Source: a virus
Taxonomy: Duplodnaviria > Heunggongvirae > Uroviricota > Caudoviricetes
IMG/VR virus record: IMGVR_UViG_2711768053_000020
Location: 1 to 45,210 of that record
DNA length: 45,210 bases
Direction: 5' to 3' (one strand)
Below are positions 1 to 45,210 of this stretch, piece by piece; the first letter of the stretch is position 1, and the number at the start of each line of letters is the position of its first letter. The position numbers and the translations under genes were made by a program. The notes beneath the pieces were generated by a model, which did no database searches, had not been told where the DNA came from, and saw nothing but the letters and a program-made list of their open reading frames with translations.

Positions 1-834
1 ATGTCATCTTCCATCAAACAACAGATTAGAGATCGCAGCGAGTACATTGGTTTTATCGAAAAATGTTTTGCAAATGCGCATCAATGCTACGTTGTCCATT
101 ATTCATGTGAATCTTTTTATGATGCTGTGGGCGGTAAATCCACAAGGATCACCTCTATTGCTGTCAGAAATTTAGGCAGTGGGCAAACAGATCATTGGGC
201 TCTTAATAGATCCGCAGAATTATTAGGTCTTGATGTTTCAGATGAAAAAAATCTCGATATCCTTGAGCATCATCTATTAGATAACTACTTTACATTCCTG
301 AAAAGATACGCACAATGCACATTTCTGCATTGGAACATGCGAGATAACAATTACGGATTTCAGGCCTTACAGCATAGATTTTCAGTCCTAGGTGGCGAGC
401 CCTTTATACTTACTGATGACAGAAAACTCGATTTAGCGAGAGCTGCCGTTTCTATATATGGACGAAGCTATATTGGGCATACCGCCAAAAGTGGCCGTGC
501 AGGTAGAATGTTAGCTCTTGTTGAAAAAAATGGTATCGCTGATAAAGATGTCTTAGCCGGCGCTGAGGAAGCCGAGGCATATGTCAAAGGTAAGTATAGA
601 GAGCTAGAAATGTCTACATTACGAAAGGTCGACATACTCTGTAATATTGCTGAGCGGATTCATGATCGTACTCTCAAAACTAACAATAAATGGTTTTGGC
701 CAAGAAGCTGGCATCCATATTGGTTAACGATGAGGCTCAAAGAACACCCATTAGTGACTGGATTAATAGTTTTAGGGATTTTCTTAGGTGTAATTACCAA
801 AGGTCTAGATCTATATGCTTGGTGGCAGCAGTAA
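1..834 (+). CDS. hypothetical protein (277 aa) with C-terminal hydrophobic segment
   Basis: ATG at window position 1 and an uninterrupted 277-codon ORF; C-terminal LVTGLIVLGIFLGVITKGL looks like a TM helix. No family recognised by eye. Confidence 0.45.
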   Translation: MSSSIKQQIRDRSEYIGFIEKCFANAHQCYVVHYSCESFYDAVGGKSTRITSIAVRNLGSGQTDHWALNRSAELLGLDVSDEKNLDILEHHLLDNYFTFLKRYAQCTFLHWNMRDNNYGFQALQHRFSVLGGEPFILTDDRKLDLARAAVSIYGRSYIGHTAKSGRAGRMLALVEKNGIADKDVLAGAEEAEAYVKGKYRELEMSTLRKVDILCNIAERIHDRTLKTNNKWFWPRSWHPYWLTMRLKEHPLVTGLIVLGIFLGVITKGLDLYAWWQQ

Positions 835-1046
835 AATGGGGTGTCAGGTCTTTATCGGGACACTGATACGGGGAAAGTTACAATACTGAGGCTGGTTCAC
901 GCTCAGAGCGTCAAAATTGTCCGTCACAGACTCGTCGCATCTGCACTTAATCCATATGACACGGATTGGACAGATTATATCCGATCCCGAACCACGCGTC
1001 TGACTGCACCTGCCGCATCATTTCACAGTGGTGTTTGATAAGGCTT

Positions 1047-1122
1047 GAGCCGTGTGAGCTGGAAACTCTCACGCACGGTTCTTAGAGGGGGCGTTGAAGG
1101 TAACTTCGGTGCCCTACTCGAC
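1047..1122 (+). mobile_element. group II intron 3' remnant (domain V plus domain VI-like hairpin with bulged A)
   Basis: GAGCCGTGTGAG...CTCACGCACGGTTC matches the conserved domain V consensus (GAGCCGUAUG...ACGUACGGUUC) at almost all invariant positions. It is followed by a GC-rich hairpin with an unpaired A near its 3' side. No intact reverse-transcriptase ORF lies upstream. Confidence 0.5.
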
Positions 1123-3425: not shown

Positions 3426-4700
3426 TCACCTGACAACGGGTAGATCAGAGAATCGGGTGGTGTAACGTGGAGAAAGCATTTCCCGTTTCATCTGCCACTG
3501 CTGCTGGATACCCTGTCCTGCAAAATACAGCGTCCCCCTCCCGCCTTTGGCATTGAGGTGATCCAGCACTTCCATCAGTTTCTCACTGCCCGGGCGCGGC
3601 GCGTTATCATCGAACAAGTTGAGCTGGGCCACGCCCTGACTGAAGAAATCACCCAACATCACCCCGGCTTTCTGATACCGATATCCGTCTTGCCATATGG
3701 CGTCCAGACAGCGGATGGCTGCACTGATGATATCCCGACTGTCCTGCGTAGGCGTCAGAAGCTTCACGGAGGCATTATTGCCATAATAGGGCTCGTTCAG
3801 TGCGAACGGGCTGGTCTTCACAAACGCCGAGATAAAACGGCAATACTGGTGCTCGCCACGCAGTTTCTCTGCCGCCCGCGAGGCATAGCTGCAGATCGCC
3901 TGGCGCATCTCTTCATACTCCGTGATACGACCGCTAAAAGAGCGGGAACAGATAATTTCCTGTTTCACTGGCGCGAATTCTTCCAGTGCCAGGCAGGGTT
4001 CTCCGCGTAACTCACGCACCGTTCGCTCCAGCACGACATTAAAATGTTTACGGATAAAACGGATGTCCGTATCAGCGAGTTGCAGTACGGTCTTGATCCC
4101 CATCGCCTCCAGTTTTTTCGAAATACGCCGACCGATGCCCCAGACTTCATCAACCGGCAGCGCGGCCATCAGTTTGCGCTGGCGATCGACACTGGACAGG
4201 TCTACCACCCCGCCCGTCTGCCGCTGCCATTGTTTGGCCGCGTGGTTGGCCAGCTTGGCCAGCGTCTTGGTCTGGGCAATGCCAACACCCACTGTCAGAT
4301 GCGTTCGCTGCAGAACAGTAGCACGGATTTCACGGCCAAAATCAGTCAGATCACGACAGTTACGTACACCAGTGAGGTCACAAAATGCCTCGTCTATCGA
4401 GTAAATTTCACAGCGCGGCGACATTTCTTCCAGCGTGGTCATCACCCGGTTAGACATATCCGCATACAGCTCATAGTTGCTGCTGAAGCACACCACCCCA
4501 TGGCGCCGGAAAAAGTCCTTCTGCCTGAAGTACGGCTCACCCATTTTGATACCCAGTTTCTTTGCCTCTGTGCTGCGGGCAATAACACAACCGTCATTGT
4601 TGGAAAGCACCACAACCGGCCTACCTTTGAGATCCGGGCGAAATACAGTTTCACAGGAGGCATAGAACGAGTTCACATCACACAACGCGTACATGATCAA
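3426..4700 (-). CDS. umuC: DNA polymerase V catalytic subunit UmuC (Y-family polymerase)
   Basis: 424 aa; N-terminus [20 protein letters not shown]...[15 protein letters not shown] and colinear similarity along the whole length to enterobacterial UmuC; start overlaps the umuD stop (ATGA). Confidence 0.95.
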
Positions 4701-5119
4701 CCCGTCGATTTCACGATGAACGTCACCACACCAAAAACATCGAGCGTTTCTTCGCTCCCGATGATGATAGGCGACCAGGCGCGGTTTTCAGGGTTAAGCT
4801 GGACAGTTGGCCATAACTGTAGGCGCTTAACGGTAAATTCCCCGTCCACCGCAGCAATAACGATATCGCCGTGCTCTGCCTTGCGTGAACTGTCCACTAC
4901 CAGTAAATCGCCTTCGCCGATCCCGGCATCAATCATCGAGTCACCAGATGCCTTAACGAAGTACGTGGCGCTGGGGTGTTGTATCAGTAGCTCGTTAAGA
5001 TCGATACGCTGTTCAACGTAGTCCTGAGCAGGGCTTGGGAAACCACAGGGTACAAGATCGCCATAGAGTGGAAGCGGCTGCACTGCACGCAACCCGGAGG
5101 GAGTGAAAAACTGCATCAT
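4697..5119 (-). CDS. umuD: UmuD (LexA-like self-cleaving SOS mutagenesis protein)
   Basis: Contains [18 protein letters not shown] and [17 protein letters not shown]...[17 protein letters not shown] motifs of UmuD. The track ORF begins at a TTG (5131); the tandem ATG ATG at 5114-5119 is the more likely start. Confidence 0.9.
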
Positions 5120-5135
5120 AATCACCGTCAATTAA

Positions 5136-5155
5136 TACTGATATTATATACAGTA
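5136..5155 (-). promoter_or_regulatory. LexA (SOS) box upstream of umuD
   Basis: TACTGATATTATATACAGTA has the CTG-N10-CAG SOS-box architecture and sits about 17 bp upstream of the umuD start. Confidence 0.8.
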
Positions 5156-5223
5156 GTTTTTATTTAAACGGAGATCAATGGCATTAGCCACCATCAGTCA
5201 TCATCGTCGCATAACTCAATGAT

Positions 5224-5775
5224 TTACCTGGTTGCCGGAAATTTTTTATATAGCGTCGATATCCCAACATCGTAAATTAATGCCACACGCTGTCGTGATT
5301 CACCTGCTGCAACCAACCTTCCTGCCTGCGCCCACTGTTCATCAGTTAGCTTTGATCGACGCCCACCTATTCGCCCTTCTTCACGAGCCGCAGCCAATCC
5401 CGCCCTGGTACGTTCGACTATCAGCTCCCTTTCCATTTCGGCAAGTGCGCCCATGACATGGAAGAAAAAGCGTCCCATTGGTGAAGACGTATCTATGCTG
5501 TCGGTCAGGCTGCGAAAGTTAATACCCTTTTCCCGAAGCTCCTCCACCAAAACGACAAGATGCCGCATGCTGCGACCGAGTCGATCCAGTTTCCAGACCA
5601 CCAGCGTGTCACCTGCCGATAATGTCCTGAGCAGCTTTTTCAGTCCTGGTCTGTCGGACTTTGTACCGCTTATCTTGTCTTCAAAAATCAGCTCACATCC
5701 TGCACAGTTCAGCGCATTACGTTGTAGATCTGTGTTCTGGTCATTTGTTGACACACGTACATAGCCAATAAGCAT
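5224..5775 (-). CDS. serine recombinase, DNA invertase of the Pin/Gin/Hin/Cin family
   Basis: MLIGYVRVSTNDQNTDLQRNAL N-terminus with catalytic Ser, VVWKLDRLGRS and SPMGRFFFHVMGALAEMERELIVERT motifs, C-terminal HTH; likely start is the internal Met (MLIGYV). Confidence 0.9.
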   Translation of the reverse strand: MLIGYVRVSTNDQNTDLQRNALNCAGCELIFEDKISGTKSDRPGLKKLLRTLSAGDTLVVWKLDRLGRSMRHLVVLVEELREKGINFRSLTDSIDTSSPMGRFFFHVMGALAEMERELIVERTRAGLAAAREEGRIGGRRSKLTDEQWAQAGRLVAAGESRQRVALIYDVGISTLYKKFPATR

Positions 5776-5801
5776 GGTAGATCTCCCTGACAAAAGCAGG
5801 A

Positions 5802-6338
5802 ATGATGCCATTTGCTCGTTATTTCTGTATTTTCATAAACGTTGGTTTGGGAGAAGGCTCAGCATTACCTGTTGGGGTGCCTGTTCCGTGGCCTTCAGAG
5901 ACACCTCCAACAGGCTGGCTGAAATGCAACGGGGCGGCTTTTTCTGCTGAAGAATACCCGGAACTGGCAAAGGCTTACCCGACAAATAAATTGCCTGATT
6001 TACGAGGTGAATTTATTCGTGGCTGGGATGATGAACGTGGTGTGGATAGTGGGCGAACTCTGCTTTCAGCGCAAGGAGATGCTATTCGAAACATTACTGG
6101 CGGTTTTGGTCAGTTGCGCGTAAACAGCGAAATTAATGCAATTGTCGATGTTCAAAGCGTGAGTGGGGCTTTTTACGGAGGTACCTCCGTCCGGAATAAC
6201 ATCAATGTATCTATGACATACGCTAATGACCGAAAAATCCGACAAGATGTTCACTTCTCGGCGGCAAATGTTGTTCCAACAGCAAATGAAAATCGTCCAC
6301 GTAACATCGCCTTTAATTATATTGTGAGGGCCGCATGA
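5802..6338 (+). CDS. alternative tail-fibre C-terminal segment (silent orientation, promoterless exon)
   Basis: Frame reads through the crossover site (…NVGLGEGSALP…) so that inversion would fuse it to the constant N-terminus of the tail-fibre gene; WPSETPPTGWLKCNGAAFSAEEYPELAKAYP looks like a tail-fibre receptor-binding tip. Confidence 0.6.
   Translation: MMPFARYFCIFINVGLGEGSALPVGVPVPWPSETPPTGWLKCNGAAFSAEEYPELAKAYPTNKLPDLRGEFIRGWDDERGVDSGRTLLSAQGDAIRNITGGFGQLRVNSEINAIVDVQSVSGAFYGGTSVRNNINVSMTYANDRKIRQDVHFSAANVVPTANENRPRNIAFNYIVRAA
5830..5855. repeat. invertase crossover site (gix/hix-like 26-bp site), copy 1
   Basis: TTTTCATAAACGTTGGTTTGGGAGAA; the half-site TTGGTTTGGGAGAA is the reverse complement of the half-site inside the tail-fibre gene at 7799-7824. 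Confidence 0.6.
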
Positions 6339-6940
6339 TGAATAAAGCCGTATTGAATAGTGAACTCATTGCCATAAAAGCGGGAGACATTATCATTTAT
6401 AATTATGATGGTGAAACGCGGGAATATATTTCTACATCAACTGAATATCTCGCTGTCGGCGTCGGTATCCCGGCATGTTCCTGTTTGGATGCACCAGGTA
6501 CACATAAAGCTGGTTATGCAATCTGTCGCTCTGTAGATTTAAATTCATGGGAATATGTGCCAGACCATCGCGGTGAAGTTGTCTATAGTACCGAAACGGG
6601 AGATACCAAAGAAATCGCAGTTCCGGGTGATTATCCTGAAAATACAACCACTATCGCCCCGTTAACGCCATACGATGAATGGGATGGTGAGAAATGGGTG
6701 ACCGATACTGAAGCACAGCATAGCGCCGCAGTAGGCGCGGCAGAAGCACAGCGTCAGTCACTGATTGATACTGCAATGGCTTCCATTAGTCTGATTCAAC
6801 TGAAATTGCAGGCCGGGCGGAAGCTGACGCAGACAGAAAACACCCGACTTAACGCTGTGCTGGATTACATTGACGCGGTGACGGCAACAGATACCAGCAC
6901 CGCGCCGGACGTCATCTGGCCTGAACTGCCGGAGGCGTAG
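6335..6940 (+). CDS. tail fibre assembly protein (alternative copy, U'-like)
   Basis: 201 aa, follows the alternative fibre segment with a 4-bp overlap; C-terminal ...DYIDAVTATDTSTAPDVIWPELPEA resembles Tfa chaperones. Confidence 0.75.
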   Translation: MMNKAVLNSELIAIKAGDIIIYNYDGETREYISTSTEYLAVGVGIPACSCLDAPGTHKAGYAICRSVDLNSWEYVPDHRGEVVYSTETGDTKEIAVPGDYPENTTTIAPLTPYDEWDGEKWVTDTEAQHSAAVGAAEAQRQSLIDTAMASISLIQLKLQAGRKLTQTENTRLNAVLDYIDAVTATDTSTAPDVIWPELPEA

Positions 6941-7355
6941 GCCATTCAATATCTGGCGCACCGGAAGTATCAACCAGTTCCAGTGCGTCCAGATAATCCA
7001 GCCATAAATTATATTGTTCCAGCTCGTCACCTTTCAGACGACCAATAGCAGCTTTGCCAGGCCACTGATGGGTATTGATGTAGGTATTGACTTCTGAAAC
7101 CAAAGATATTTTTTTCATTTCAGCCGTCAACACCTCATCCTCTTTTGAAGGTGGTGGGGAATTAATCCATACTGGCCGTCCTGAACTGTCAGCGCCAATT
7201 TCTTTCCCTTCTGGATGCAGACCAAGAAATTGCTCATATGTTTCTCTGGTAATTTCAATAACATCATCAGGAAGCGTTCCCGCATCCTCATATTCTGGAA
7301 ACAATTCTTGCAGATAAAAACTTTTACTCCCGGGTGAAAAGAATACTGAGTTCAT
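6912..7355 (-). CDS. tail fibre assembly protein (expressed copy, U-like)
   Basis: 147 aa directly downstream of the tail-fibre gene; C-terminal ...DYLDALELVDTSGAPDIEWPTPP parallels the other Tfa copy. Confidence 0.8.
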   Translation of the reverse strand: MNSVFFSPGSKSFYLQELFPEYEDAGTLPDDVIEITRETYEQFLGLHPEGKEIGADSSGRPVWINSPPPSKEDEVLTAEMKKISLVSEVNTYINTHQWPGKAAIGRLKGDELEQYNLWLDYLDALELVDTSGAPDIEWPTPPAVQAR

Positions 7356-15765: not shown

Positions 15766-17261
15766 TATGCAGACTCCTCTGAATACTGAAGACGGAACTG
15801 GTTAACCACGGCAAAGACACGCAACTGGTTAACATAGTCAGGCGGGAACAGCGTGTTCAGGCGGTTCGGATCGCTGGCATCACGCTCCACAACCAGGTAC
15901 TGCTTAAACAGTTCGTAGTTTTCCACGATCCCCGCACGCTCAAGCTGACGGTAGGTTGCCAGCAGTTCCCCTTTGATCACCGCCGGGGTGACAATCGCCT
16001 GACCGGGACCAAAGCGGGTACCGTCGCTGGCAAGCTTGTGACGCCCGTACTTACTGGTAATGACGGATTTCAGTTTGCGCAGTACATACGCACTGGTATG
16101 CAGCGTCTCGCTGTCGAGGTAGCTGTTATCCGCAACCCCGTAAGCGTTTTTCCTGTACGTGGTGACATCACGCTGAATGCGCAGTACCCCGCTTTCGACA
16201 TACGCCGTTGCCACGCCATGAGACAGCAGGGTCTGTTGTTCGGTCATCGTGAACCGTTTCCCCTTCGGCGCAGGCAGCATACCCACCAGCTCACCGGTCT
16301 GCGTGGGACGTGCCGGATCGTTGCGGATAAACACTGCTGCGCGGGCGGTACGGCTTGCCGCCAGCTCGTCGGCAGGCGTCTGGGTCTCTTTTTCGTACCC
16401 CGCCAGGGTGATGTGCTGCTGGTTAAACTGGTCACCTGCGTTCACCAGTTCTGACAGTGTGCCTGTCTTTGCCGTATACACATGACCATACAGCTGACGC
16501 GCATAGCTCCAGCGACCGCTGGTATCGTTCATCTCGGTCACCAGCGTGTTAACGGAGGCCGTGTCGTTGAACGGCAGGCCGATATAATCAAACGGCTCAT
16601 CCGCCATTGCAGCCACCGCGCCGGTGAGAACAGGAGCGCCCGTTCCGGCGGTACCCGTCGCCACGGCAATCTGTACGCCCGCTGGCAGCACTTCGCCCCC
16701 ACCAAAGCCGTAGTAATTGAGGCTGACAGGAATTTCATTCCCGCAAAGCCCCTTATGACGCGCGGTCAGTGTGACCACGCCTGCCGAAGATGAGGCCGTA
16801 AACGGCAGGGCCGGAACGGCATTGATGGCATCTTTGATACTGCTGGCAATCGTCGTGACGTTATCGCCGTTGGTCACCGGTGCCTGCACGCGGGTACGTC
16901 CCACATAAACATTCACCGTGCCGGTTTCGGTTGCTGCTCCGGTCACCGTCAGCGTAACCGTTGCCGCCGCGCCTGTGGCTTCCGGAACGGCAATCACATA
17001 CAGCTCGCCAAACGGGTCGGTCTGGCGATAAGCCTCGACCATACGCGCCAGCTGACTTCCCGCACCACAAATCTGGCGTGCATAGTCTGCCGACGGCATC
17101 AGCACCAGACTGTTGGCAACAATCTCTGCACCGTTATTGGCGTGACCAATCAGCAACGATGCCCCGCTGTCCTGTGCAGTATTCGCCGCCGAGTTATCCA
17201 TTTCCGCATAAAACAGCGGAACCAGCGTATTCGACGGAATGGTGTTAAAGCTCATCGTCAT
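15765..17261 (-). CDS. contractile tail sheath protein (Mu gp39 / L-like)
   Basis: 498 aa, first large gene of the tail module; composition and C-terminus typical of sheath proteins. Confidence 0.9.
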   Translation of the reverse strand: MTMSFNTIPSNTLVPLFYAEMDNSAANTAQDSGASLLIGHANNGAEIVANSLVLMPSADYARQICGAGSQLARMVEAYRQTDPFGELYVIAVPEATGAAATVTLTVTGAATETGTVNVYVGRTRVQAPVTNGDNVTTIASSIKDAINAVPALPFTASSSAGVVTLTARHKGLCGNEIPVSLNYYGFGGGEVLPAGVQIAVATGTAGTGAPVLTGAVAAMADEPFDYIGLPFNDTASVNTLVTEMNDTSGRWSYARQLYGHVYTAKTGTLSELVNAGDQFNQQHITLAGYEKETQTPADELAASRTARAAVFIRNDPARPTQTGELVGMLPAPKGKRFTMTEQQTLLSHGVATAYVESGVLRIQRDVTTYRKNAYGVADNSYLDSETLHTSAYVLRKLKSVITSKYGRHKLASDGTRFGPGQAIVTPAVIKGELLATYRQLERAGIVENYELFKQYLVVERDASDPNRLNTLFPPDYVNQLRVFAVVNQFRLQYSEESA

Positions 17262-17415
17262 CGGTGTTCACCTTTTTATTCACGCGCCGGATATCTCCCG
17301 CTGCTTCACGGCGCAGCCAGTAGTTGTTCTCGTCAACATTTCGCCCTTCGGTGGGCAAAAGGTCACCGCGGGCAGGGTCAGGCACTGACCGCTCTTTAAC
17401 AGGTTTCACAAACAT
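17245..17415 (-). CDS. small hypothetical protein (56 aa) preceding the sheath gene
   Basis: ATG at 17413-17415 directly after the stop of the upstream gene; my own translation MFVKPVKERSVPDPARGDLLPTEGRNVDENNYWLRREAAGDIRRVNKKVNTDDDEL; stop overlaps the sheath start. Below the track length cutoff. Confidence 0.45.
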   Translation of the reverse strand: MFVKPVKERSVPDPARGDLLPTEGRNVDENNYWLRREAAGDIRRVNKKVNTDDDEL

Positions 17416-36989: not shown

Positions 36990-37208
36990 GTGGAGAAACA
37001 TATGCTGAACCTCGATTGTGTTCCTATCTCAACTTATTGCAAAGAAACTGGCGAAACTACTGAAGCTATAAACAAACGTGTACAGCGCGGTGTTTGGCGT
37101 GAAGGCGTTCAGGTTTTAAAGGTTGAAGGCGTTAAGGAGAGGTGGATTGATCTTAGTGAGGTTGCAAAATGGGCCAGACAAAACTGCTCAAACTACCGCG
37201 CGGCGTAA
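36990..37208 (+). CDS. xis: excisionase (Xis-like)
   Basis: 72-aa basic protein immediately upstream of and overlapping the integrase gene. Confidence 0.65.
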   Translation: MEKHMLNLDCVPISTYCKETGETTEAINKRVQRGVWREGVQVLKVEGVKERWIDLSEVAKWARQNCSNYRAA

Positions 37209-38344
37209 CAATCAGGAAACACCGCCAGGACGAAACGATCAATATAACTTTCACCTACAAAGGAGTTAAATGCCGTGAGCCTCTTTCCAATCTGGAAGTA
37301 ACACCAAAGAACATTAAATACGCTGAGCGTACACTCGGCGAAATTCATAATAAGATCGAAAGGGGAACATTCATTTATGCGGAATATTTTCCCCGTTCTG
37401 CTCGTTTGAAAATTTTTGGTAATGCTGCCGCAGGCAAAACGGTAAAAATGTATCTGGACGAATATCTTGAAATCTGCGAAACGAGAAAACTTTCTCCCTC
37501 TACGATTGGTGGTTATAAAAAATGCCGTAGTGCGTTAGCCTCACTTCACATTTGTCCTGCAAGTGAATTAACACCAGCAATCCTGAAAGCGTGGATTCAA
37601 AATCAGAAAACGACCTTAAAAACAATTCGCAACCAGTTATCTTTCCTGCGGTCAGCACTTGATGAAGCCGTAACCGATGGGGTACTTCAAATTAACCCCG
37701 TATCGTTAGTAACTGCTTCACGCTACCAAAGTGATAAGTCAGAAGCAGAAAGCAACTACGTGGTTGATCCGCTATCACCAGCAGAAGTTGATGCATTACT
37801 AGCAGCTGCTGGAAATAAACAATGGGAGAATCTGTTCCGGTTCGCCATACATACAGGCCTGCGTAGTTCTGAATTATGTGCCCTTAGATGGCGTGATATC
37901 GACTTTGTTGGAAAAACTGCCCATGTCCAGAGCGCAAGTGTTGTCGGTGTTATCAAAGGAACAAAGACAAAAGCCGGTACTCGTAAAGTTGAACTGACAG
38001 AAGAGGCAATGTTGGCGCTGATAAATCAGAAGCCATTTACATTCATGAAGGATGCTACTGTCTTTGAAGATCCAAAGACAAACAAACCGTGGGCCAGCGC
38101 CGATGCGATAAGGAAAAAAGCGTGGATACCAACCTTACGTAAAGCAGGTATCCGGTACCGTAACCCATATCAGACCAGGCATACTTTCGCCACCAGCCAT
38201 ATCAGCCGTGGTGCGAACCTGTTCTGGCTTGCAGGCCAGATGGGCCATAAGGGACCAGAAATGCTATTTCGTCACTATGGCAGTTACCTTGCTGCATATG
38301 ACGGACATACCGCTAAAAATACTAATGATACAAAACAGGCATGA
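37169..38344 (+). CDS. int: tyrosine integrase (lambda-type site-specific recombinase)
   Basis: 391 aa; C-terminal catalytic region with R...HxxR...Y pattern (NPYQTRHTFATSHISRGANLFWLAGQMGHKGPEMLFRHYGSY). Confidence 0.9.
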   Translation: MGQTKLLKLPRGVTIRKHRQDETINITFTYKGVKCREPLSNLEVTPKNIKYAERTLGEIHNKIERGTFIYAEYFPRSARLKIFGNAAAGKTVKMYLDEYLEICETRKLSPSTIGGYKKCRSALASLHICPASELTPAILKAWIQNQKTTLKTIRNQLSFLRSALDEAVTDGVLQINPVSLVTASRYQSDKSEAESNYVVDPLSPAEVDALLAAAGNKQWENLFRFAIHTGLRSSELCALRWRDIDFVGKTAHVQSASVVGVIKGTKTKAGTRKVELTEEAMLALINQKPFTFMKDATVFEDPKTNKPWASADAIRKKAWIPTLRKAGIRYRNPYQTRHTFATSHISRGANLFWLAGQMGHKGPEMLFRHYGSYLAAYDGHTAKNTNDTKQA

Positions 38345-38639: not shown

Positions 38640-38888
38640 ATGTCAGAACTAGTCATGAAGATGTTTGGGCTGAATGATTTGGTCAAAGGCGGACAAGCCA
38701 TGGCCGATCGTTTGAACAAATCTGGTGTTAAAAACATCAAGGTCGTAGGGCGTGGTGCAGTTATTGTAGACCCATCTACTGACCCAGAAAAAATCACTCA
38801 GCTTAGGAAAGCAGCTAGAAAATTCGTCGAGCAGGATGCAAAAGCTGTTGCAGCCGCTAAAGCTAACTCAATGGACAATGACGACTAA
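38640..38888 (+). CDS. hypothetical small protein (82 aa)
   Basis: ATG preceded by AAGGAGGT; first gene of a two-gene AT-rich cassette. Confidence 0.5.
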   Translation: MSELVMKMFGLNDLVKGGQAMADRLNKSGVKNIKVVGRGAVIVDPSTDPEKITQLRKAARKFVEQDAKAVAAAKANSMDNDD

Positions 38889-38891
38889 CAA

Positions 38892-39710
38892 ATGTTTGCA
38901 TTGCTGATCATTCCACTTTTAGTAAGTGGATCCTTACTGGTTACATCGCCCCATAACATCAAATTATTCTATCGACTCCACCGTTACGACGGCCAGCTTC
39001 TCTATATGAAGGTGGCCACGTACGGTGTGTACTCGTTCATTGTTGCAGTCGTGCTGGCGTATGCAACCAAGTACTTTATACCAAGCCTTACACTGGTCAC
39101 ATGGGTATCACATCTTATTGATGGTAGTGCAGACCCTAAAGAAAACAGGATAACATCATGGCTCATCCTGCTATCAGTGGCGACTTGTGGAGTTGCTTTT
39201 ATTTGGTTGCAGATATGCAAATTTCGTATGTTTGTGGCAGCAAAAACTATTAGTTCTGCATCCAATAATGCAATTTCTATCAATTTCGCAAAGCAACTAA
39301 TCAGGCTTAATGAGTTGGAAAAACTGTTGTCTGATGGCTCACTTGGTCAGCTATTCTTTGATTCAGCGACTACAAACAGACCGGTACTGATAAGCCTGAA
39401 ATGCCGCAAAGTATATGTCGGAACAGTTAACATGATTAGTGAGCCAAACGAAAAACAAGGCCCTAACCTTGAAATTTCTATTAGCCCAATCATGTCTGGT
39501 TACAGGGACAAGGACACACTAAGGGTCCTGTTTTCAAATGATTACAACGATCTTGATGGAGTTGATACCAGTATCATATTTCCATTAAGTGAGGTTTCGC
39601 ATGCTTCTTGGTTCAATATGGATATACATGAAAAAGTAGACAATAACCGAGAGAAGAAACCAGAAACAAACCGCAAGAAAAAACGTAAATATGGCAGGAC
39701 TACGAATTGA
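38892..39710 (+). CDS. hypothetical membrane protein (272 aa)
   Basis: Starts 4 nt after the upstream stop; N-terminal half with several hydrophobic helices, C-terminal half soluble and basic at the end. Confidence 0.55.
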   Translation: MFALLIIPLLVSGSLLVTSPHNIKLFYRLHRYDGQLLYMKVATYGVYSFIVAVVLAYATKYFIPSLTLVTWVSHLIDGSADPKENRITSWLILLSVATCGVAFIWLQICKFRMFVAAKTISSASNNAISINFAKQLIRLNELEKLLSDGSLGQLFFDSATTNRPVLISLKCRKVYVGTVNMISEPNEKQGPNLEISISPIMSGYRDKDTLRVLFSNDYNDLDGVDTSIIFPLSEVSHASWFNMDIHEKVDNNREKKPETNRKKKRKYGRTTN

Positions 39711-39784
39711 TAGTAAAATATCCGCAAAAGAGCCGTAAGAACCAACTTTAAATTTTATTCGTTATAAATCAATGCATTGCAAAT

Positions 39785-39820
39785 ATTCGGACACGGGTTC
39801 AACTCCCGCCAGCTCCACCA
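39785..39820 (+). other. ssrA: tmRNA (ssrA) / tRNA-like 3'-end fragment ending in CCA; probable att remnant
   Basis: ATTCGGACACGGGTTCAACTCCCGCCAGCTCCACCA has T-arm, acceptor 3' strand and CCA, and from memory matches the 3' terminus of enterobacterial ssrA with one mismatch; no 5' portion of the RNA gene is present upstream. Confidence 0.55.
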
Positions 39821-39985
39821 CTTTTTAGTTGTTTGAAGTTCAATGAAGTCTACTAAGCCCACACAGCACAAGCTCTGCGGGCTTTTTTACGTCTATTGTC
39901 GTCCAGTGAGAATTGCTGAGAACTACGAGTTATGGCACCCTGAATGGGACCCATTAAGAAGGGTCCAAAAACCGAGGGTCCCAAA

Positions 39986-41215
39986 ATGGCAAAAATCGCT
40001 AAGAAGCTCACTGACACTGAAATCAAAAGCACCAAGCCAGCCGATAAAGAAATCAACTTGTTTGACGGTGATGGTCTGATTCTACGAATCGCTCCTTTGG
40101 CGAAAGGAGGCAAGAAAAATTGGTATTTCAGGTATGCAGTACCAGTGAGCAAGAAAAGAACCAAAATGAGCCTTGGGACATATCCTCACCTTACCCTTGC
40201 AAGAGCCAGAGCCTTACGTGATGAATATCTCTCCTTTCTGGCAAATGGTGTTGATCCCCAAATCCATAACAACGATAAGGCGAAGGCATTAAAGAGTGCT
40301 ACTGAGCACACTCTCCAAGCCGTAGCGCGGAAATGGTTAGATGAGAAGGTAAAGACATCAGGTATCTCACAAGACCATGCAGCAGACATCTGGCGCAGCT
40401 TAGAGAGAAATGTCTTTCCCGGTCTGGGTAATGTCCCTATCAATGAGATCCGACCTAAGCTCTTAAAACAACACCTTGATCCTATTGAGCAACGAGGCGT
40501 ATTGGAAACTCTACGCCGTATCATTTCACGTCTGAATGAAATCTTCCGGTGGGCAGCTACTGAAGAACTTATTGAGTTCAACCCGGCTGACAACCTTGGT
40601 CAAAGATTCAGTAAACCAAAAAAGCAAAATATGCCTGCCCTTCCCCCAAGCGAATTGCCAAGGTTTATGGAATCTTTGACGAATGCGTCAATCCGGTTGG
40701 AAACACGTATGCTAATTGAATGGCAATTGTTGACATGGGTTCGTCCGGGTGAAGCCGTTCGCGCAAGGTGGTCTGATATTGATACAACCAACAGCATTTG
40801 GAACATTCCTGCTGATTTCATGAAAATGAAAAAGCTTCACAAAGTTCCTTTGAGTAAAGAAGCTTTGCGCATCCTTGAATTAATGAAATCAATAAGTGGG
40901 CATAGAGAATGGGTTTTCCCCAGCATAAAAGCGCCTCTTAATCATATGCATGAACAAACAGCCAACGCAGCTATCATCCGAATGGGGTTCGGAGGCGAGC
41001 TTGTAGCTCACGGTATGCGTTCTATTGCACGAACAGCGGCAGAGGAGTCTGGTAAATTCAGAGCTGAAGTTCTTGAGGCAGCGCTTGCCCACTCGAAAAA
41101 AGATGAAATTATCGCAGCATACAATCGTGCAGAATATCTGATAGAGCGACAGAGTTTGATGCAATGGTGGAGTGATTACGTTCAAGCTCAAAGATCAAAT
41201 GCTCTGGTAGCCTAA
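39986..41215 (+). CDS. P4-type tyrosine integrase
   Basis: N-terminal MAKIAKKLTDTEIKSTKPADKEINLFDGDGLILRIAP...NWYFRY is the characteristic P4-integrase N-terminus; C-terminal ...AHGMRSIARTAAEESG...AALAHSKKDEIIAAYNRAEY catalytic region; directly downstream of the tmRNA-like fragment. Confidence 0.9.
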   Translation: MAKIAKKLTDTEIKSTKPADKEINLFDGDGLILRIAPLAKGGKKNWYFRYAVPVSKKRTKMSLGTYPHLTLARARALRDEYLSFLANGVDPQIHNNDKAKALKSATEHTLQAVARKWLDEKVKTSGISQDHAADIWRSLERNVFPGLGNVPINEIRPKLLKQHLDPIEQRGVLETLRRIISRLNEIFRWAATEELIEFNPADNLGQRFSKPKKQNMPALPPSELPRFMESLTNASIRLETRMLIEWQLLTWVRPGEAVRARWSDIDTTNSIWNIPADFMKMKKLHKVPLSKEALRILELMKSISGHREWVFPSIKAPLNHMHEQTANAAIIRMGFGGELVAHGMRSIARTAAEESGKFRAEVLEAALAHSKKDEIIAAYNRAEYLIERQSLMQWWSDYVQAQRSNALVA

Positions 41216-41253: not shown

Positions 41254-41670
41254 ATGGAAACCCTATTCAAAGTTTTTGAAAAATTTAGTTCCAGACCACT
41301 TTTTTTTATTTTTTTCGGACTCTCACTTTGTGAATTTTTTCAGAAACAATCTGTTCTGATGAATCCATCAGCAGATAACATCGCGAAATTATTCGCAGCC
41401 ATGATATTAGTTGTTTTTTTTACTTGGGGATTTGAATGGCTAATCTTCAAGTTCAATGTAAACCTTGAACCTCATGATCAAGGCGATATTGGACCAACAA
41501 TTGGAACGGCTACTTTAGCTGTATACTTAGTTTATGCCTTTCACTTTCTCAGTGAAAATCCTGAAGCATTAAATTTAAAGTTATTAACTAACTCTGGCTT
41601 TATATACAGCACAACTCTATTATTATTCTCATTAGAATGCATGAAGCTTAGAAGACTTAAACAAAAATAA
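41254..41670 (+). CDS. hypothetical small membrane protein (138 aa)
   Basis: AT-rich ORF with about four hydrophobic segments, immediately after the integrase. Confidence 0.5.
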   Translation: METLFKVFEKFSSRPLFFIFFGLSLCEFFQKQSVLMNPSADNIAKLFAAMILVVFFTWGFEWLIFKFNVNLEPHDQGDIGPTIGTATLAVYLVYAFHFLSENPEALNLKLLTNSGFIYSTTLLLFSLECMKLRRLKQK

Positions 41671-41741
41671 ACAACATCATTGTGATGATAAATATAAAAT
41701 AGGCATGGCGAAAAAAAATCACCACGCCTAAAATATAATAA

Positions 41742-43508
41742 TTATGGTAGCATCATTGATACATAATCCACACCAATCCTTGAGCTATACTGAGACGCTA
41801 TAGCCTGATATCTTTCTGCATAACCAGTTCTCAGTTGAGATTTAAGTTTGAGTCGGACAGGAACATTTTGCACGTTGCCATCCATATTACTTAAAAACAC
41901 GGCAGAAATAATATTTTTTTCTTCGCCATCAACTGTTGTTCCATGATTCAACACCACCATATAATCAACAACAGGAAGCGTTTTATCCCCTTCGAAAATA
42001 GAGAGATATTTTCTTTGATTTTTATGCATTACATATATATATTTCGAATGTTCAGCAAATGGCAATGCTTTACTCTGACTGGCGTTAAAAAGCTCCAGAA
42101 CTTTAATGAGCCTGTGCGGACTTAATCTTACATGGTGAGGGTCGTTACCCTGAGTAGGAACCAAATCACATGCCGCAGATACACATAAATACCATTTGTT
42201 CGACTCTGTATCAAAGAAAATAGTGCCAGTAGAAATATGACCATCTTCAAAATTCTTTGAAGACAAATTCATATTTAAAGCATGATACATTTCGTGATAA
42301 GTATCATTATTTGATGGCAGATCCATTTTTGAAGAGCAATATTGGAGCAATGCAGCAACTCCGCTGTTAGCGTATTCATTTGAATAGCTATCAAAAACAC
42401 TTTTGATAAATTCATCCAGCGTATTATTATTTTTAAGTCTTTGATAAAGCTCTTCTGATAAATTACCAAATACAAAGTCAATATTTCTACATCTAATATC
42501 AGGCGAGTCTGATTTTAATATCTCATTTAACCACGCAGCTTGACCGTAATGATCGTTAGCCAAATGATTTACAAAAGATAAAGCCTCAGCTTCGATTGCA
42601 TTCTGAATTTCAGATTTTATTAACTGATAATAAGATGGTTTCCATTCAATGAGAGAATCATTGAGAGTTTGCCAAATCCTATCTCCATCGTTTTCATGAT
42701 CATCTTGAACCTTATGAAATAGGGAGACAAAGATATTACCACATTGAATCCATTTTACTCCGCTTTCATCACCCCGAATGACATTGCCAGATGTGTTGCT
42801 AGAAATAATTGCATTTCTAGACACAGCATATTCTGCAATCATTTTTGCAATGAAGTTTTTATCCTTTTGATCCTCCAACACAGCATCATCATGTATTAAT
42901 CTTTTAATTCTTCTACAAGGCTTACTGTCTTTAATATAGGCTATTGTTTCATCTCTTGTGAGAGCTTTATTACCATTATCATTTAAGTTCGGTAATACAA
43001 CGTCTTCCCAATAACTTTGGACATCTTCATTATCGTAGTCAATGATCAAGCTGTTGATATCCAGAGCACCTTTGAGAGTCGATGATATCTGCATCCAAAC
43101 CGTTTCTAAATTCTCTCTAGTATATATTACAATCATATTTAAATGATCGGAGTCTTTCAAATCTTGTAATAGTTTAAGTGTTTTATCAGGTGCATTATTA
43201 TCAAGATGATAATCTACAATAATAAGATCTGATTTTCTAATCCGATCCACATCGAAATTAACAGAACCATTGTCAACATCACAAATCATATTTTTAGATT
43301 GAAAAAAGCTCTCAAGAGTAGCGGCTCGTTTAGATGAGTCAATTTTGTTGTAGTCTAAATCAACTTCGTTATTCAACGCCCTGATTGATTCAGAATACGT
43401 CAGAAAATCGTCATCAATCATGACAACGGAACGAATTGCATTTTCGCAGAAAGTTTTCTGGACAAGAGAATTATAATTTGCCACTGTCATATTAGAACTC
43501 CACTCCAT
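41742..43508 (-). CDS. receiver (REC)-like domain protein with unassigned C-terminal domain (588 aa)
   Basis: N-terminal region has REC hallmarks in order: acidic pair (VVMIDDDF), putative phospho-acceptor Asp (DLIIVDYHL), conserved Thr (MIVIYT); about 400 further residues unrecognised. Start overlaps the upstream kinase gene by 17 nt. Confidence 0.7.
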   Translation of the reverse strand: MEWSSNMTVANYNSLVQKTFCENAIRSVVMIDDDFLTYSESIRALNNEVDLDYNKIDSSKRAATLESFFQSKNMICDVDNGSVNFDVDRIRKSDLIIVDYHLDNNAPDKTLKLLQDLKDSDHLNMIVIYTRENLETVWMQISSTLKGALDINSLIIDYDNEDVQSYWEDVVLPNLNDNGNKALTRDETIAYIKDSKPCRRIKRLIHDDAVLEDQKDKNFIAKMIAEYAVSRNAIISSNTSGNVIRGDESGVKWIQCGNIFVSLFHKVQDDHENDGDRIWQTLNDSLIEWKPSYYQLIKSEIQNAIEAEALSFVNHLANDHYGQAAWLNEILKSDSPDIRCRNIDFVFGNLSEELYQRLKNNNTLDEFIKSVFDSYSNEYANSGVAALLQYCSSKMDLPSNNDTYHEMYHALNMNLSSKNFEDGHISTGTIFFDTESNKWYLCVSAACDLVPTQGNDPHHVRLSPHRLIKVLELFNASQSKALPFAEHSKYIYVMHKNQRKYLSIFEGDKTLPVVDYMVVLNHGTTVDGEEKNIISAVFLSNMDGNVQNVPVRLKLKSQLRTGYAERYQAIASQYSSRIGVDYVSMMLP

Positions 43509-45210
43509 TGAACTGGATCACAAAATTAGCGCCATCTTTTATTAAATAGTTATCGCCTTCATCAGGTTCTGAATACCATATTTTATGATGTGCAACAGCA
43601 AGGTTTTCTCGACATAGATACAGACCTACCCCATGTCCATTTGCTCTTTTGCTATAAAATAGTTCAAATAGTCGCGGGATATCATCGGTATCAATTGCCG
43701 GACCAGAATTTGCTATGATAACCAAAGAATTCACAAAACCAATCTTTATGAGCCTATTATTTGACAGACTGACCCAATACATTGCATTGTTGATAATATT
43801 AGTAAAAACAGGATAGATCCTTGATGGTATATCTGTTATTGCGATTTGCTTAAACTCTTCACTAAATTCAATAGTTATTCGTTGCCGTTCGAAACGCTCC
43901 CCAAAGAACTTCAGGACATAATCCATGATATTTTTTCCAGTTATTCTCTGCCTGGATTGATAACCTGATATTTTCAAAGGTGATAAGAAACGTATTTGTT
44001 GAGTAAGCGATCTGTGAGCATTTAACGCCAATGAAAAACCAGGGTGTTCTTTTACAGAAGTAGGAAGAGAGTTTAGTCCTCTGGTTACCATAGAATCCAT
44101 TTCTTCAAGTTCATGAGATATTATCTCAACACTAATACCTAACTGTGCAAGCGCGTTTAAACTTTTAGCTTTTTCTTCAAAATATGAGCGTTCTTCTTCA
44201 GATAATGAGAATGCTGAATCTAAGTTTATACCTTCAAATAATCTATCGAGACCTTTTATTATTGATTGATATTTGAAAGTTAGGGTATCAACTGACTCAA
44301 CATATAAACTATCGAGCAAATTAAACACATTTTCAATTTGTGAATCATTATCTATTGAATCAACAACTGATATAGTTTTAGCATAATAATCACTTCGATC
44401 AACCTTTATTTCATCGGCCCATTTTTTTAAAAGAGAATGTATCTTCTCCTCTATCGTGTTATTAAACTTAGTTAGTTTAGAATTAATAATACCTTGATTT
44501 TTTTCAAGGTGATTTTTCGCTGACAATGAAGGCTCAAGTTTATTTAATTCAGAATCAAGTTTATTAATTGCTAACTTCATTTGTAGAATATACGCAGAGA
44601 ACTCATTAAATTTATCTCTGTAGTCTCTATATTTCTCTTCATACATTCCAAGTTTTGGAGGTTTGATAGGCGTTTTAATTTCACTGCGCAACGCATCTAA
44701 GTTTGTAAGATCACTGTCTATAATTTTAAGATAGTTTAAATCTAACGAACCATCAGTTTTATCAAGCTTAGTTTTCAGCCTTTTAACAGCCTCCAAGGAA
44801 GCATCAAGAACTGGTGTCTGATTCTTCAAAGCTTCTGAAAAACTTTTTTGTGTTGATTTTCGAGCTTGTTGTTGAGCAGATTTTCTTAACTCTTTTTCAC
44901 GCTTAACTTGTTCTAAAAGCTCTTTACGGTCATCAGAACGTGAACCAAAAAATCTATCAGCAAGTTCAGTTAACAAATTAGATATAATAGTTTTCAGTTC
45001 TCTTGCAGCCTGGTTTCTTATGAATCCCTCTCTCCCCGACTTATCTTTCAGCTCTTTATTACTGGATTGAGTAATTCCAATATAACCAAAAATCCTTCTA
45101 TTAGACCAATAATATCGCCCTGCATTCCATGAACGTCTTTCTTCTATCTGGAAGAAATCATTATCTACTCGACCATAAGGTAATACTCTCAAGCTATCCC
45201 TAAAAATCAT
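43492..45210 (-). CDS. cytoplasmic histidine kinase-like protein (572 aa)
   Basis: C-terminal core with H-box (ISHELEEMDSMV), N-box (NIINNAMYW), G1 (ANSGPAIDTDD) and G2 (GHGVGLYLCRE); about 380-aa N-terminal region is coiled-coil-rich with no TM segment. ATG coincides with the last window base. Confidence 0.75.
   Translation of the reverse strand: MIFRDSLRVLPYGRVDNDFFQIEERRSWNAGRYYWSNRRIFGYIGITQSSNKELKDKSGREGFIRNQAARELKTIISNLLTELADRFFGSRSDDRKELLEQVKREKELRKSAQQQARKSTQKSFSEALKNQTPVLDASLEAVKRLKTKLDKTDGSLDLNYLKIIDSDLTNLDALRSEIKTPIKPPKLGMYEEKYRDYRDKFNEFSAYILQMKLAINKLDSELNKLEPSLSAKNHLEKNQGIINSKLTKFNNTIEEKIHSLLKKWADEIKVDRSDYYAKTISVVDSIDNDSQIENVFNLLDSLYVESVDTLTFKYQSIIKGLDRLFEGINLDSAFSLSEEERSYFEEKAKSLNALAQLGISVEIISHELEEMDSMVTRGLNSLPTSVKEHPGFSLALNAHRSLTQQIRFLSPLKISGYQSRQRITGKNIMDYVLKFFGERFERQRITIEFSEEFKQIAITDIPSRIYPVFTNIINNAMYWVSLSNNRLIKIGFVNSLVIIANSGPAIDTDDIPRLFELFYSKRANGHGVGLYLCRENLAVAHHKIWYSEPDEGDNYLIKDGANFVIQFNGVEF

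Follow-up and report, generated by a model that had tools for sequence, protein, structure and literature searches.

A kinase and receiver pair of the PF19191/PF19192 families at an ssrA-associated P4-integrase island is probably the remnant of a three-gene methylase module

The window, i.e. the whole 45,210-nt stretch of DNA analysed, ends with two open reading frames (ORFs) on the minus strand. The receiver-like gene is located at 41742..43490 and encodes 582 amino acids from M7, or 588 from the upstream ATG at 43508; the kinase ORF (43492..45210; 572 aa) is truncated at the 5' end, and its frame runs past the end of the window. The preliminary description of this DNA reported two overlapping genes on one strand. 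Two ORFs on a common strand were confirmed (41742..43508 and 43492..45210); the overlap, 17 nt long, arises only with the upstream start codon and is doubtful, because the homologues and RefSeq start the receiver-like protein at M7, which leaves a 1-nt gap. A terminator-like hairpin on the same strand (41700..41730; 12 pairs and a T run) begins 12 nt past the receiver-like stop codon and is the probable end of the operon. The pair is also AT-rich as described before, with a GC content of 0.32-0.36 versus about 0.5 elsewhere in the window.

The plus strand beside the pair encodes a 138-aa hypothetical protein without a family match (41254..41670) and a P4-type tyrosine integrase (39944..41215; 423 aa) composed of the Arm-DNA-bind_3, Phage_int_M and Phage_integrase domains. 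Such an integrase had been proposed to adjoin the pair, together with a tmRNA-like att remnant, and both were found. The remnant is a 38-nt ssrA 3' end at 39782-39819 (plus strand), which divides the island of the pair from the elements integrated upstream. It was seen only by alignment to the ssrA of another genome; no complete tmRNA gene was detected in the window by ARAGORN or Rfam. The same integrase directly adjoins ssrA/smpB in other genomes, and the 138-aa ORF accompanies the island in the enterobacterial copies (L002 and L005) and is absent from the distant loci. The pair is present in about 10-11% of the E. coli genomes (~560 of the 5,426 complete ones). The integrase, the ssrA remnant and this patchy presence support a mobile island at ssrA rather than a housekeeping locus.

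The receiver-like protein is identical to the RefSeq entry WP_000214990.1. Pfam family PF19192 (Response_reg_2) matched its residues 25-181 (588-aa numbering; 42966..43436, minus strand) with an E value of 3.7e-31, and D32/D33, D99, T130 and K266 are invariant across 43 homologues. The DD, D, T and K residues of PF19192 are all present, and the receiver hallmarks noticed at the N-terminus are thereby borne out. D99 is the predicted phospho-acceptor; the fifth strand and K266 of the receiver-like domain are placed after a helical insertion. The helical middle region (residues about 274-416; 42261..42689, minus strand) has no family or fold match and carries a conserved S299-E300-x-Q302-N303-x-x-E306 motif. 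It is followed by a C-terminal beta-rich domain with the last helix (residues about 417-572; 41793..42260, minus strand). The conserved positions in the C-terminal region include G428-T429, C447-D448, Q558-L559-R560 and R577/G579/D581, and this domain was found solely behind receiver domains of the PF19192 type. In agreement with the preliminary description, the ~400 residues after the receiver domain showed no Pfam, NCBIfam or PADLOC match, and neither HTH nor another DNA-binding family or fold was detected in the protein as an output.

The C-terminal beta-rich domain gave a weak fold-level match to MazF/CcdB/Kid, and may have a MazF/CcdB-like fold; we treat this as a fold-level lead only. 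However, the domain lacks sequence or profile similarity to these toxins, the catalytic Arg/Thr of MazF could not be placed on it, and an antitoxin partner is absent. The hhalign comparison of the receiver-protein family profile with E. coli MazF gave no support, nor did Pfam scans of 43 family members for a toxin fold at E values up to 10. The family profile had zero matches among the PDB sequences. The plasmid and phage collections searched with the receiver protein returned only two distant plasmid matches and two prophage-flank records.

The kinase ORF corresponds to the RefSeq entry WP_000577254.1, a 572-aa 'ATP-binding protein'. It matched PF19191 (HEF_HK; 26.1 bits versus a cut-off of 24.1) and HATPase_c (44.9 bits versus a cut-off of 26.4; E 1.8e-11). 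The DHp-like HEF_HK domain comprises residues 356-414 (43969..44145, minus strand) with H366-E367, and the C-terminal HATPase_c catalytic domain comprises residues 462-553 (43552..43827, minus strand) with the N, G1, F and G2 boxes. H366-E367, N471/N474/N475, G503-P504 and G525/G527/G529 are conserved in the homologues. The catalytic core recognised earlier is therefore supported by both domains and by the conserved boxes; the notion of a complete protein with a long coiled-coil N-terminus did not hold, since the ORF is a C-terminal fragment. Its 572 residues are 99% identical to residues 417-988 (the C-terminal 58%) of a 988-aa kinase (P0144), which occurs at 99% identity in Serratia, Klebsiella and Salmonella. 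H782 of P0144 corresponds to H366 of the window kinase; the head of P0144 contains an HATPase_c_3 (paraMORC) domain at residues 28-137, which is absent from the window kinase ORF.

The ATG of the kinase ORF is the last codon of the window. The identical E. coli genomes continue the frame for about 120 nt up to a deletion breakpoint, and the sequence expected on the breakpoint side of the frame, beyond the window end after these ~120 nt, is CGCAGGGGTCGG. The breakpoint falls at kinase codon ~376, at the same base among the matches listed (558 matching genomes of the 5,426 complete E. coli genomes). A C5 methylase is absent between the integrase and the window end, and the methylase together with the N-terminal kinase part of the window allele was found in none of the 5,426 complete E. 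coli genomes. The module in the window thus lacks HATPase_c_3 and the C5 methylase because of the deletion. An identical IS3 junction is present in 484 genomes. IS3 as the cause of the truncation is less certain, because one record, GenBank AJ304858.2 (2005), which labels the stretch a 'remnant integrative element', shows this breakpoint with 15 other bases in place of IS3, and the two junctions are not connected by a target duplication. Homologues of 572 aa are also annotated in Salmonella, Pectobacterium, Klebsiella, Yersinia and Morganella. Their reading as independent truncations or as a short isoform was rejected for one Salmonella case, in which the DNA is an intact 999-aa ORF; the annotation examined is a mis-called start.

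The intact islands (L002/L003) have the gene order smpB, P4 integrase, 138-aa ORF, receiver-like gene, 988-aa kinase, and C5 methylase overlapping the kinase start. A C5 methylase gene overlapping the kinase gene is present in L002-L004, L005, L007, L008, L010 and L011. The three-gene core was also found on an Acidobacteria conjugative element, an Acinetobacter Tn7, metagenome contigs, and an integrative conjugative element of E. coli NCTC86, with gene overlaps of 4-20 nt on these other mobile elements. The conserved unit is a C5 methylase, a paraMORC-kinase fusion, and the receiver protein. An HNH_2 / ScoMcrA-like endonuclease gene adjoins the module in one Salmonella locus (L005) and in E. 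coli NCTC86, and Vsr lies beside it in one metagenome contig; a separate nuclease is absent from many three-gene loci. [quoted passage not shown] Conversely, the extra HNH endonuclease in some intact relatives means that the receiver protein may be a regulator and not an effector.

The 2021 definition of the HEF_HK (PF19191) and Response_reg_2 (PF19192) families tied this two-component-like pair to C5 methylases, to restriction-modification genes and to paraMORC ATPases, and E. coli sequences were among those defining them (Bellieny-Rabelo, Pretorius & Moleleki, Genome Biol Evol, PMC8011034). The window pair is consistent with that description: both families score above their cut-offs, the genes are adjacent on the same strand, and the proteins are soluble. 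The differences are HATPase_c_3, which occurs in 83% of the family members, and the usual upstream C5 methylase; the window copy has neither. The paraMORC GHKL ATPases of restriction-modification systems were described by Iyer, Abhiman & Aravind (2008, Biol Direct, PMC2292703). Their GHKL head (ELWKNAYDA, DNGCGM, GEKGIGRLS), transducer, and links to C5 methylase and Vsr recur in the intact relative; however, this relative has a fused histidine-kinase core and a receiver partner instead of a helicase or nuclease, and in the window the head is deleted. The Ambrosia system of P. aeruginosa (AbrR-AbrA-AbrB-AbrC-AbrD) protects from phages, and the receiver Asp is required (bioRxiv preprint, 2025, 10.1101/2025.09.30.679545). 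Like the intact module, Ambrosia combines a methylase, a fused HATPase_c_3/HATPase_c protein (AbrB) and a receiver, and the AbrB head with its 'RD-x-RV-x-PYG' motif is homologous to P0144 (~32% identity). In contrast, the methylase of Ambrosia is of the N6-adenine type, and the system includes an XRE regulator, a 209-aa receiver (AbrC) and a separate HNH nuclease; the hhalign probability between AbrC and the window receiver protein was 0.4%. The window has the AbrB-like C-terminal part only, and counterparts of AbrR, AbrA and AbrD are absent (no XRE, N6 methylase or HNH gene in the island). The proposed link of the family with restriction or defence is supported by PMC8011034 and by the methylase-coupled relatives on mobile elements.

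Comparison of the receiver gene between the window and the intact allele revealed 1 nonsynonymous and 12 synonymous changes. Within the truncated clade, the nonsynonymous to synonymous changes were 5:3 for the receiver gene and 7:1 for the kinase (12:4 in total, one stop codon included), in a sample of 9 loci and 16 substitutions for which the most divergent matches were chosen and assembly errors are possible (L014). The receiver gene is frameshifted in 4 of these 9 loci. The polymorphism within the truncated lineage looks neutral, and the pair shows signs of relaxed selection. Neither ORF is interrupted in most of the ~560 genomes, at 99.8-100% identity; the decay would therefore be recent, and residual activity is possible. 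A remnant that arose recently and is inherited vertically would show such identity in any case. Because nonsynonymous, nonsense and frameshift changes are accumulating in an orphan pair, a decaying and non-functional remnant is most likely.

We consider it probable, with good confidence, that one end of a P4-integrase island at ssrA survives here, and that the three-gene module once carried by this island has decayed. The original island would have encoded a C5 DNA methylase, a kinase fusion of ~990 aa and a receiver protein of ~580 aa. The fusion would consist of a paraMORC-type GHKL ATPase (HATPase_c_3 and transducer), a coiled coil, and a histidine-kinase core (HEF_HK and HATPase_c). A single deletion would have removed the methylase and the first ~376 kinase codons along with the remaining part of the island, leaving the orphan kinase core and the receiver protein. 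In the intact module, the methylase would mark the host DNA, and the GHKL/transducer head could act as an ATP-dependent sensor. Sensing would lead to His autophosphorylation by the C-terminal kinase core, and the phosphoryl group would pass to D99 of the receiver; both reactions are predicted from the conserved residues. [quoted passage not shown] That the methylase and the sensor head disappeared together agrees with an arrangement in which the effector needs the head for its arming. The preliminary description proposed the pair as a candidate defence module of two genes, lacking a separate Hpt gene; as a complete unit this was not upheld, and the pair is a truncated part of the three-gene module.

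The truncated pair might still be a working minimal module, in which the sensor-less kinase acts on a receiver with a toxin-like domain, and defence or addiction keeps it in ~10% of E. coli. The open and nearly identical ORFs in ~560 genomes, the intact catalytic residues of both proteins, a weak AGGA 3 nt ahead of the internal kinase ATG, and the terminator after the operon are consistent with this idea. We regard it as unlikely, for the pair has lost its native promoter region together with the coupled methylase gene, the substitution pattern in the clade is close to neutral and one nonsense allele and several frameshifted ones occur, and the high identity would be expected of a recent remnant. 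Moreover, no sampled distant locus has an architecture that starts at kinase position 417, and the 572-aa Salmonella homologue has a mis-called start. The further proposal is quite improbable: the head-less kinase would phosphorylate the receiver protein, constitutively or conditionally, and thereby gate its MazF/CcdB-like toxin domain as a minimal abortive-infection or addiction pair kept in about one tenth of E. coli, and PF19192 would represent a new receiver-toxin effector class, the restriction step of a methylase-guided, phosphorelay-gated immunity. For the intact family, the kinase and receiver could instead form a transcriptional switch that induces the neighbouring methylase or HNH gene on infection, with the receiver as a regulator; this is a possible reading, if one we lean against. 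A switch of this kind has been proposed for Ambrosia, and Bellieny-Rabelo et al. speculated on one. Ambrosia reporters at the methylase and HNH positions were induced by infection, D60A abolished defence, Salmonella L005 and E. coli NCTC86 have the HNH_2 / ScoMcrA-like gene beside the module, and DNA binding is conceivable for the unassigned helical middle region of the receiver protein. However, the receiver protein showed neither an HTH nor any other DNA-binding family or fold, AbrC is not detectably related to it, many loci have three genes only, and the upstream methylase gene is translationally coupled to the kinase gene. This coupling, and the Vsr in some loci, suggests constitutive self-methylation.

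The preliminary description also compared the pair with Detocs, which according to Rousset et al. 2023 reportedly consists of the kinase DtcA, the Hpt protein DtcB and the receiver-PNP protein DtcC. A Detocs-type system, in which the kinase senses phage and passes the phosphate to an ATP-depleting receiver-effector, shares the idea of a phosphorelay ending in a receiver fused to a non-transcriptional effector. The likeness extends to the general logic only: a soluble kinase and a receiver fused to a non-DNA-binding domain, on an island. The Hpt gene or domain and the PNP_UDP_1 effector are both absent; the sole other ORF of the island (138 aa) offers no Hpt counterpart. The expectation that the effector does not resemble a purine nucleoside phosphorylase was correct, as no Pfam domain was found beyond the receiver domain. 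The kinase is of paraMORC/HEF_HK lineage, and its relatives are coupled to a methylase. Neither protein matched a PADLOC model at E < 0.001 (best E values 0.0028 and 0.026, to unrelated models; PADLOC-DB v2 may not include Detocs models), and the NCBIfam scan of both proteins returned nothing specific. With these components missing, the Detocs-like composition is discarded and a Detocs-type mechanism is very improbable. An ordinary housekeeping signalling pair is equally hard to credit. Its canonical H, N, G1 and G2 boxes, like its receiver residues, would suit it, but its distribution and genomic context contradict it: the pair occurs in only about one tenth of the E. coli genomes, within an integrase island at ssrA, and the relatives lie on conjugative elements and Tn7 across unrelated phyla, always with a C5 methylase. 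Moreover, Pfam revealed no domain of a known signalling type, be it sensor or output.

The window pair is a degraded form of the known PF19191/PF19192 family, for which the families, the paper and the RefSeq names already exist; as a degraded copy of a described module, the locus itself is of little importance. Its annotation has a wider consequence. The E. coli 572-aa start codon has been copied onto an intact gene of ~1,000 aa in at least one Salmonella record, which distorts the architecture counts for the kinase family, and truncation or a copied start annotation accounts for at least one of the 'group 2' cases (those lacking HATPase_c_3) in PMC8011034. Defence against phages has so far been demonstrated only for the related Ambrosia system, and the PF19192-type systems are known from sequence. 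The intact versions, in E. coli NCTC86 and in the Serratia, Klebsiella and Salmonella islands, are the ones worth experimental study.

The receiver protein is encoded by an ORF of 588 aa at 41742..43508, and the kinase by an ORF of 572 aa at 43492..45210, both on the minus strand. The genes had been described as overlapping; the two ORFs stand, whereas the 17-nt overlap is probably a 1-nt gap, since the receiver protein starts at M7 (582 aa) in RefSeq and most homologues. A strong terminator-like hairpin is located 3' of the downstream (receiver) gene. The pair is indeed AT-rich (GC 0.32-0.36, against about 0.5 in most of the window). Upstream of it, on the plus strand, are a 138-aa ORF without a family match and the expected P4-type enzyme, a 423-aa tyrosine integrase with Arm-DNA-bind_3, Phage_int_M and Phage_integrase domains. 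No tmRNA gene was found in the window by ARAGORN or Rfam; alignment with another E. coli genome showed that 39782-39819 is the final 38 nt of ssrA, which is the att remnant noted previously.

Several elements are arranged in tandem at ssrA, since a myovirus-type prophage (~7000-38344) sits upstream of this remnant. It encodes a tail sheath, a tape-measure-like protein, a major capsid protein, a large terminase, a CI-like S24 repressor, and its own integrase (391 aa, 37169-38344). The stretch from the prophage integrase to the ssrA remnant contains two ORFs, of 82 aa and 272 aa (38640-39710, plus strand); neither has a Pfam or PADLOC match, and the 272-aa product has predicted membrane segments. 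At the other end, a 277-aa ORF (1..834, plus strand) begins at the window edge without a Pfam match, and a full-model Rfam group II intron match (Intron_gpII, 53.6 bits) follows just 3' of it at 1045-1122 (plus strand). A 582-aa ORF at 1554-3302 (plus strand), in a patch of 32% GC next to the prophage, weakly matches the KAP-family P-loop NTPases and could be further defence-type cargo.

Profile searches assigned the pair to PF19191 and PF19192. Residues 25-181 of the receiver protein match PF19192 (Response_reg_2, E 3.7e-31), and 43 homologues with identity down to 23% all keep D32/D33, D99 at the end of strand 3, T130, and K266, which bears out the proposed receiver domain. The kinase has PF19191 (HEF_HK) at residues 356-414 and HATPase_c at residues 462-553. 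Its invariant residues, in nine aligned sequences with identity down to 39%, are H366-E367, N471/N474/N475, G503-P504, and G525/G527/G529. RefSeq names the two products 'response regulator receiver domain' and 'ATP-binding protein'. Both Pfam families were defined in 2021 by Bellieny-Rabelo et al. (PMC8011034) as a soluble, 'two-component-like' pair that originated from paraMORC GHKL ATPases; the pair was linked in 91.6% of 644 loci and enriched beside C5 cytosine methylases, Vsr, HNH, and other restriction-modification genes.

The catalytic core of the kinase was therefore recognized correctly, with HEF_HK, HATPase_c, and the conserved boxes; the gene itself is not whole. Its ATG is the final codon of the window, and the product matches residues 417-988 of the closest full-length kinases (988 aa; Serratia, Klebsiella, and Salmonella) with 99% identity. 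The absent 416 residues include a HATPase_c_3 GHKL head with the motifs ELWKNAYDA, DNGCGM, and GEKGIGRLS. The intact island has the order smpB, P4 integrase, 138-aa ORF, receiver protein, 988-aa kinase, and C5 DNA methylase; the methylase end overlaps the kinase start, and more cargo lies beyond, including a relaxase. In identical E. coli genomes, the frame stays open for about 120 nt 5' of the annotated kinase ATG, up to CGCAGGGGTCGG, where it meets an IS3 end. The pair is present in 573-586 of 5,426 complete E. coli genomes (at least 99% identity in about 560); for this allele, none of the 5,426 retains either the methylase or the 5' stretch. Among the matches listed (558 genomes matched in all), the breakpoint is at the same base, codon ~376 of the intact sequence; 484 genomes share an identical IS3 junction (for example, the E. 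coli locus L001, ~16127-17390). The same breakpoint occurs without IS3 in AJ304858.2 (L020, 2715-2760), which covers prophage CP-1639 and its integration site in strain 1639/77 and annotates the stretch as 'remnant integrative element'. There, 15 other bases, ATCCTTAGAGATGCG, replace IS3 and give a CDS of 614 aa its ATG; the two forms are not connected by a target-site duplication. The E. coli copies thus go back to one ancestral truncation, which IS3 may have caused or may have followed.

The substitution pattern also supports decay. Compared with the intact allele, the receiver gene has 1 nonsynonymous and 12 synonymous changes, and the kinase remnant 5 and 3. Within the truncated clade, the nonsynonymous to synonymous counts in nine E. 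coli loci were 5:3 for the receiver gene and 7:1, including one nonsense codon, for the kinase remnant. The sum of 12:4 is near neutral, since there are ~3.8 nonsynonymous sites per synonymous site. RefSeq flags the receiver gene as frameshifted in 4 of these loci and the kinase gene as disrupted in 2. Strains CRE1540, ET479, and 'numer 3' (L013, L018, and L019) share indels and two substitutions, with the receiver gene frameshifted; in strain 03_3013, residue 67 of the kinase remnant is replaced by a stop codon, and IS1 adjoins the remnant in ET479. The sample is small and partly selected (its loci were among the most divergent in the ranking), and the L014 assembly appears to contain errors; thus, the pattern is support rather than proof. 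The best reading of the window locus is a decaying remnant, and residual function of the two-gene stump is improbable.

Homologues of 572 aa are also annotated in Salmonella, Pectobacterium, Klebsiella, Yersinia, and Morganella. A natural short form was rejected for the one contig whose DNA was inspected, Salmonella enterica GCA_009468465.1 (L005), where a single uninterrupted 999-aa ORF (3984-6983) encloses the public 572-aa 'ATP-binding protein' call. A methylase precedes this ORF, and the 1.25-kb annotation 'gap' is the head-coding stretch. Complete genes in other species thus appear to have been given the start codon of the abundant, truncated E. coli copy.

Elsewhere, a trio recurs with short gene overlaps: a C5 methylase, a 970-1,000-aa HATPase_c_3/HEF_HK/HATPase_c protein, and a 580-640-aa receiver protein. 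It was seen in four settings: on a conjugative element of Acidobacteria, on a Tn7 of Acinetobacter, and on two metagenome contigs, in one of which Vsr immediately follows the trio. In Acinetobacter junii (L009, 1-3836), the module is carried by a Tn7-like transposon whose TnsC, TnsD/TniQ, and TnsE genes immediately precede it, and a small HTH gene is paired with the methylase, which is convergent. A divergent intact copy is carried on an integrative conjugative element in ~205 E. coli genomes, including NCTC86 (NZ_CP019778.1; L011, 7697-14889), with a C5 methylase, a 989-aa kinase fusion, and a 607-aa receiver protein. An HNH 'phosphorothioated DNA-binding restriction endonuclease' follows, and the element carries ArdC and a MobH relaxase; a similar HNH_2 gene is near the Salmonella copy. 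The family is consistently mobile and methylase-linked. Defence linkage, as opposed to housekeeping, is upheld; the 'new two-gene system' turns out to be an already described three-gene module in truncated form.

The ~400 C-terminal residues of the receiver protein, previously left unassigned, remain so: beyond PF19192, nothing matched in Pfam, NCBIfam, or PADLOC, and a profile search of PDB sequences found no match to the family. A phmmer search with residues 236-588 against 1.84 billion representatives gave 412 clusters. In the best 150 of these, evident fragments apart, the match begins near residue 230-290 of a ~600-aa protein, so the domain is known only behind PF19192. The AlphaFold model from the 43-sequence alignment is confident (pLDDT 85), and a possible MazF/CcdB-like fold of this domain is a lead, with no support at the sequence level. 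Conserved polar residues include S299/E300/Q302/N303/E306 in the helical part, and T429, C447-D448, R560, R577, and D581 in the beta part.

The suggested resemblance to Detocs was not borne out. Neither an Hpt protein or domain nor a PNP effector accompanies the window pair, PADLOC gave no significant match for either protein, and the kinase belongs to another lineage, one coupled to a methylase. Among systems studied by experiment, the nearest is Ambrosia of P. aeruginosa (bioRxiv 10.1101/2025.09.30.679545), which comprises an XRE regulator, an N6 methylase, AbrB (HATPase_c_3 and HATPase_c), AbrC (a 209-aa receiver), and AbrD (HNH); its anti-phage activity needs all five genes and the receiver Asp D60. 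AbrB shares homology with the intact relative in its head and 'RD-x-RV-x-PYG' motif (32-33% identity), whereas AbrC has no detectable relation to PF19192 proteins. The window locus is related in theme to Ambrosia; however, it is not a member.

The analysis establishes the domains present, the conservation of the phosphotransfer residues, the operon link to a C5 methylase, the mobility of the module, and the E. coli truncation. In the intact system, the methylase would mark self DNA, and the occurrence of Vsr at some loci suggests that the host genome is its target. [quoted passage not shown] A requirement of the head for arming the effector fits the joint loss of methylase and sensor head in a viable lineage. 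The main rival, transcriptional control of neighbouring restriction genes, has been proposed for Ambrosia; however, no DNA-binding fold was found in the receiver protein and many loci have no separate nuclease, and it is therefore considered unlikely for the intact family. The window locus is of little interest in itself; its intact relatives and a possible receiver-toxin effector merit experiments.
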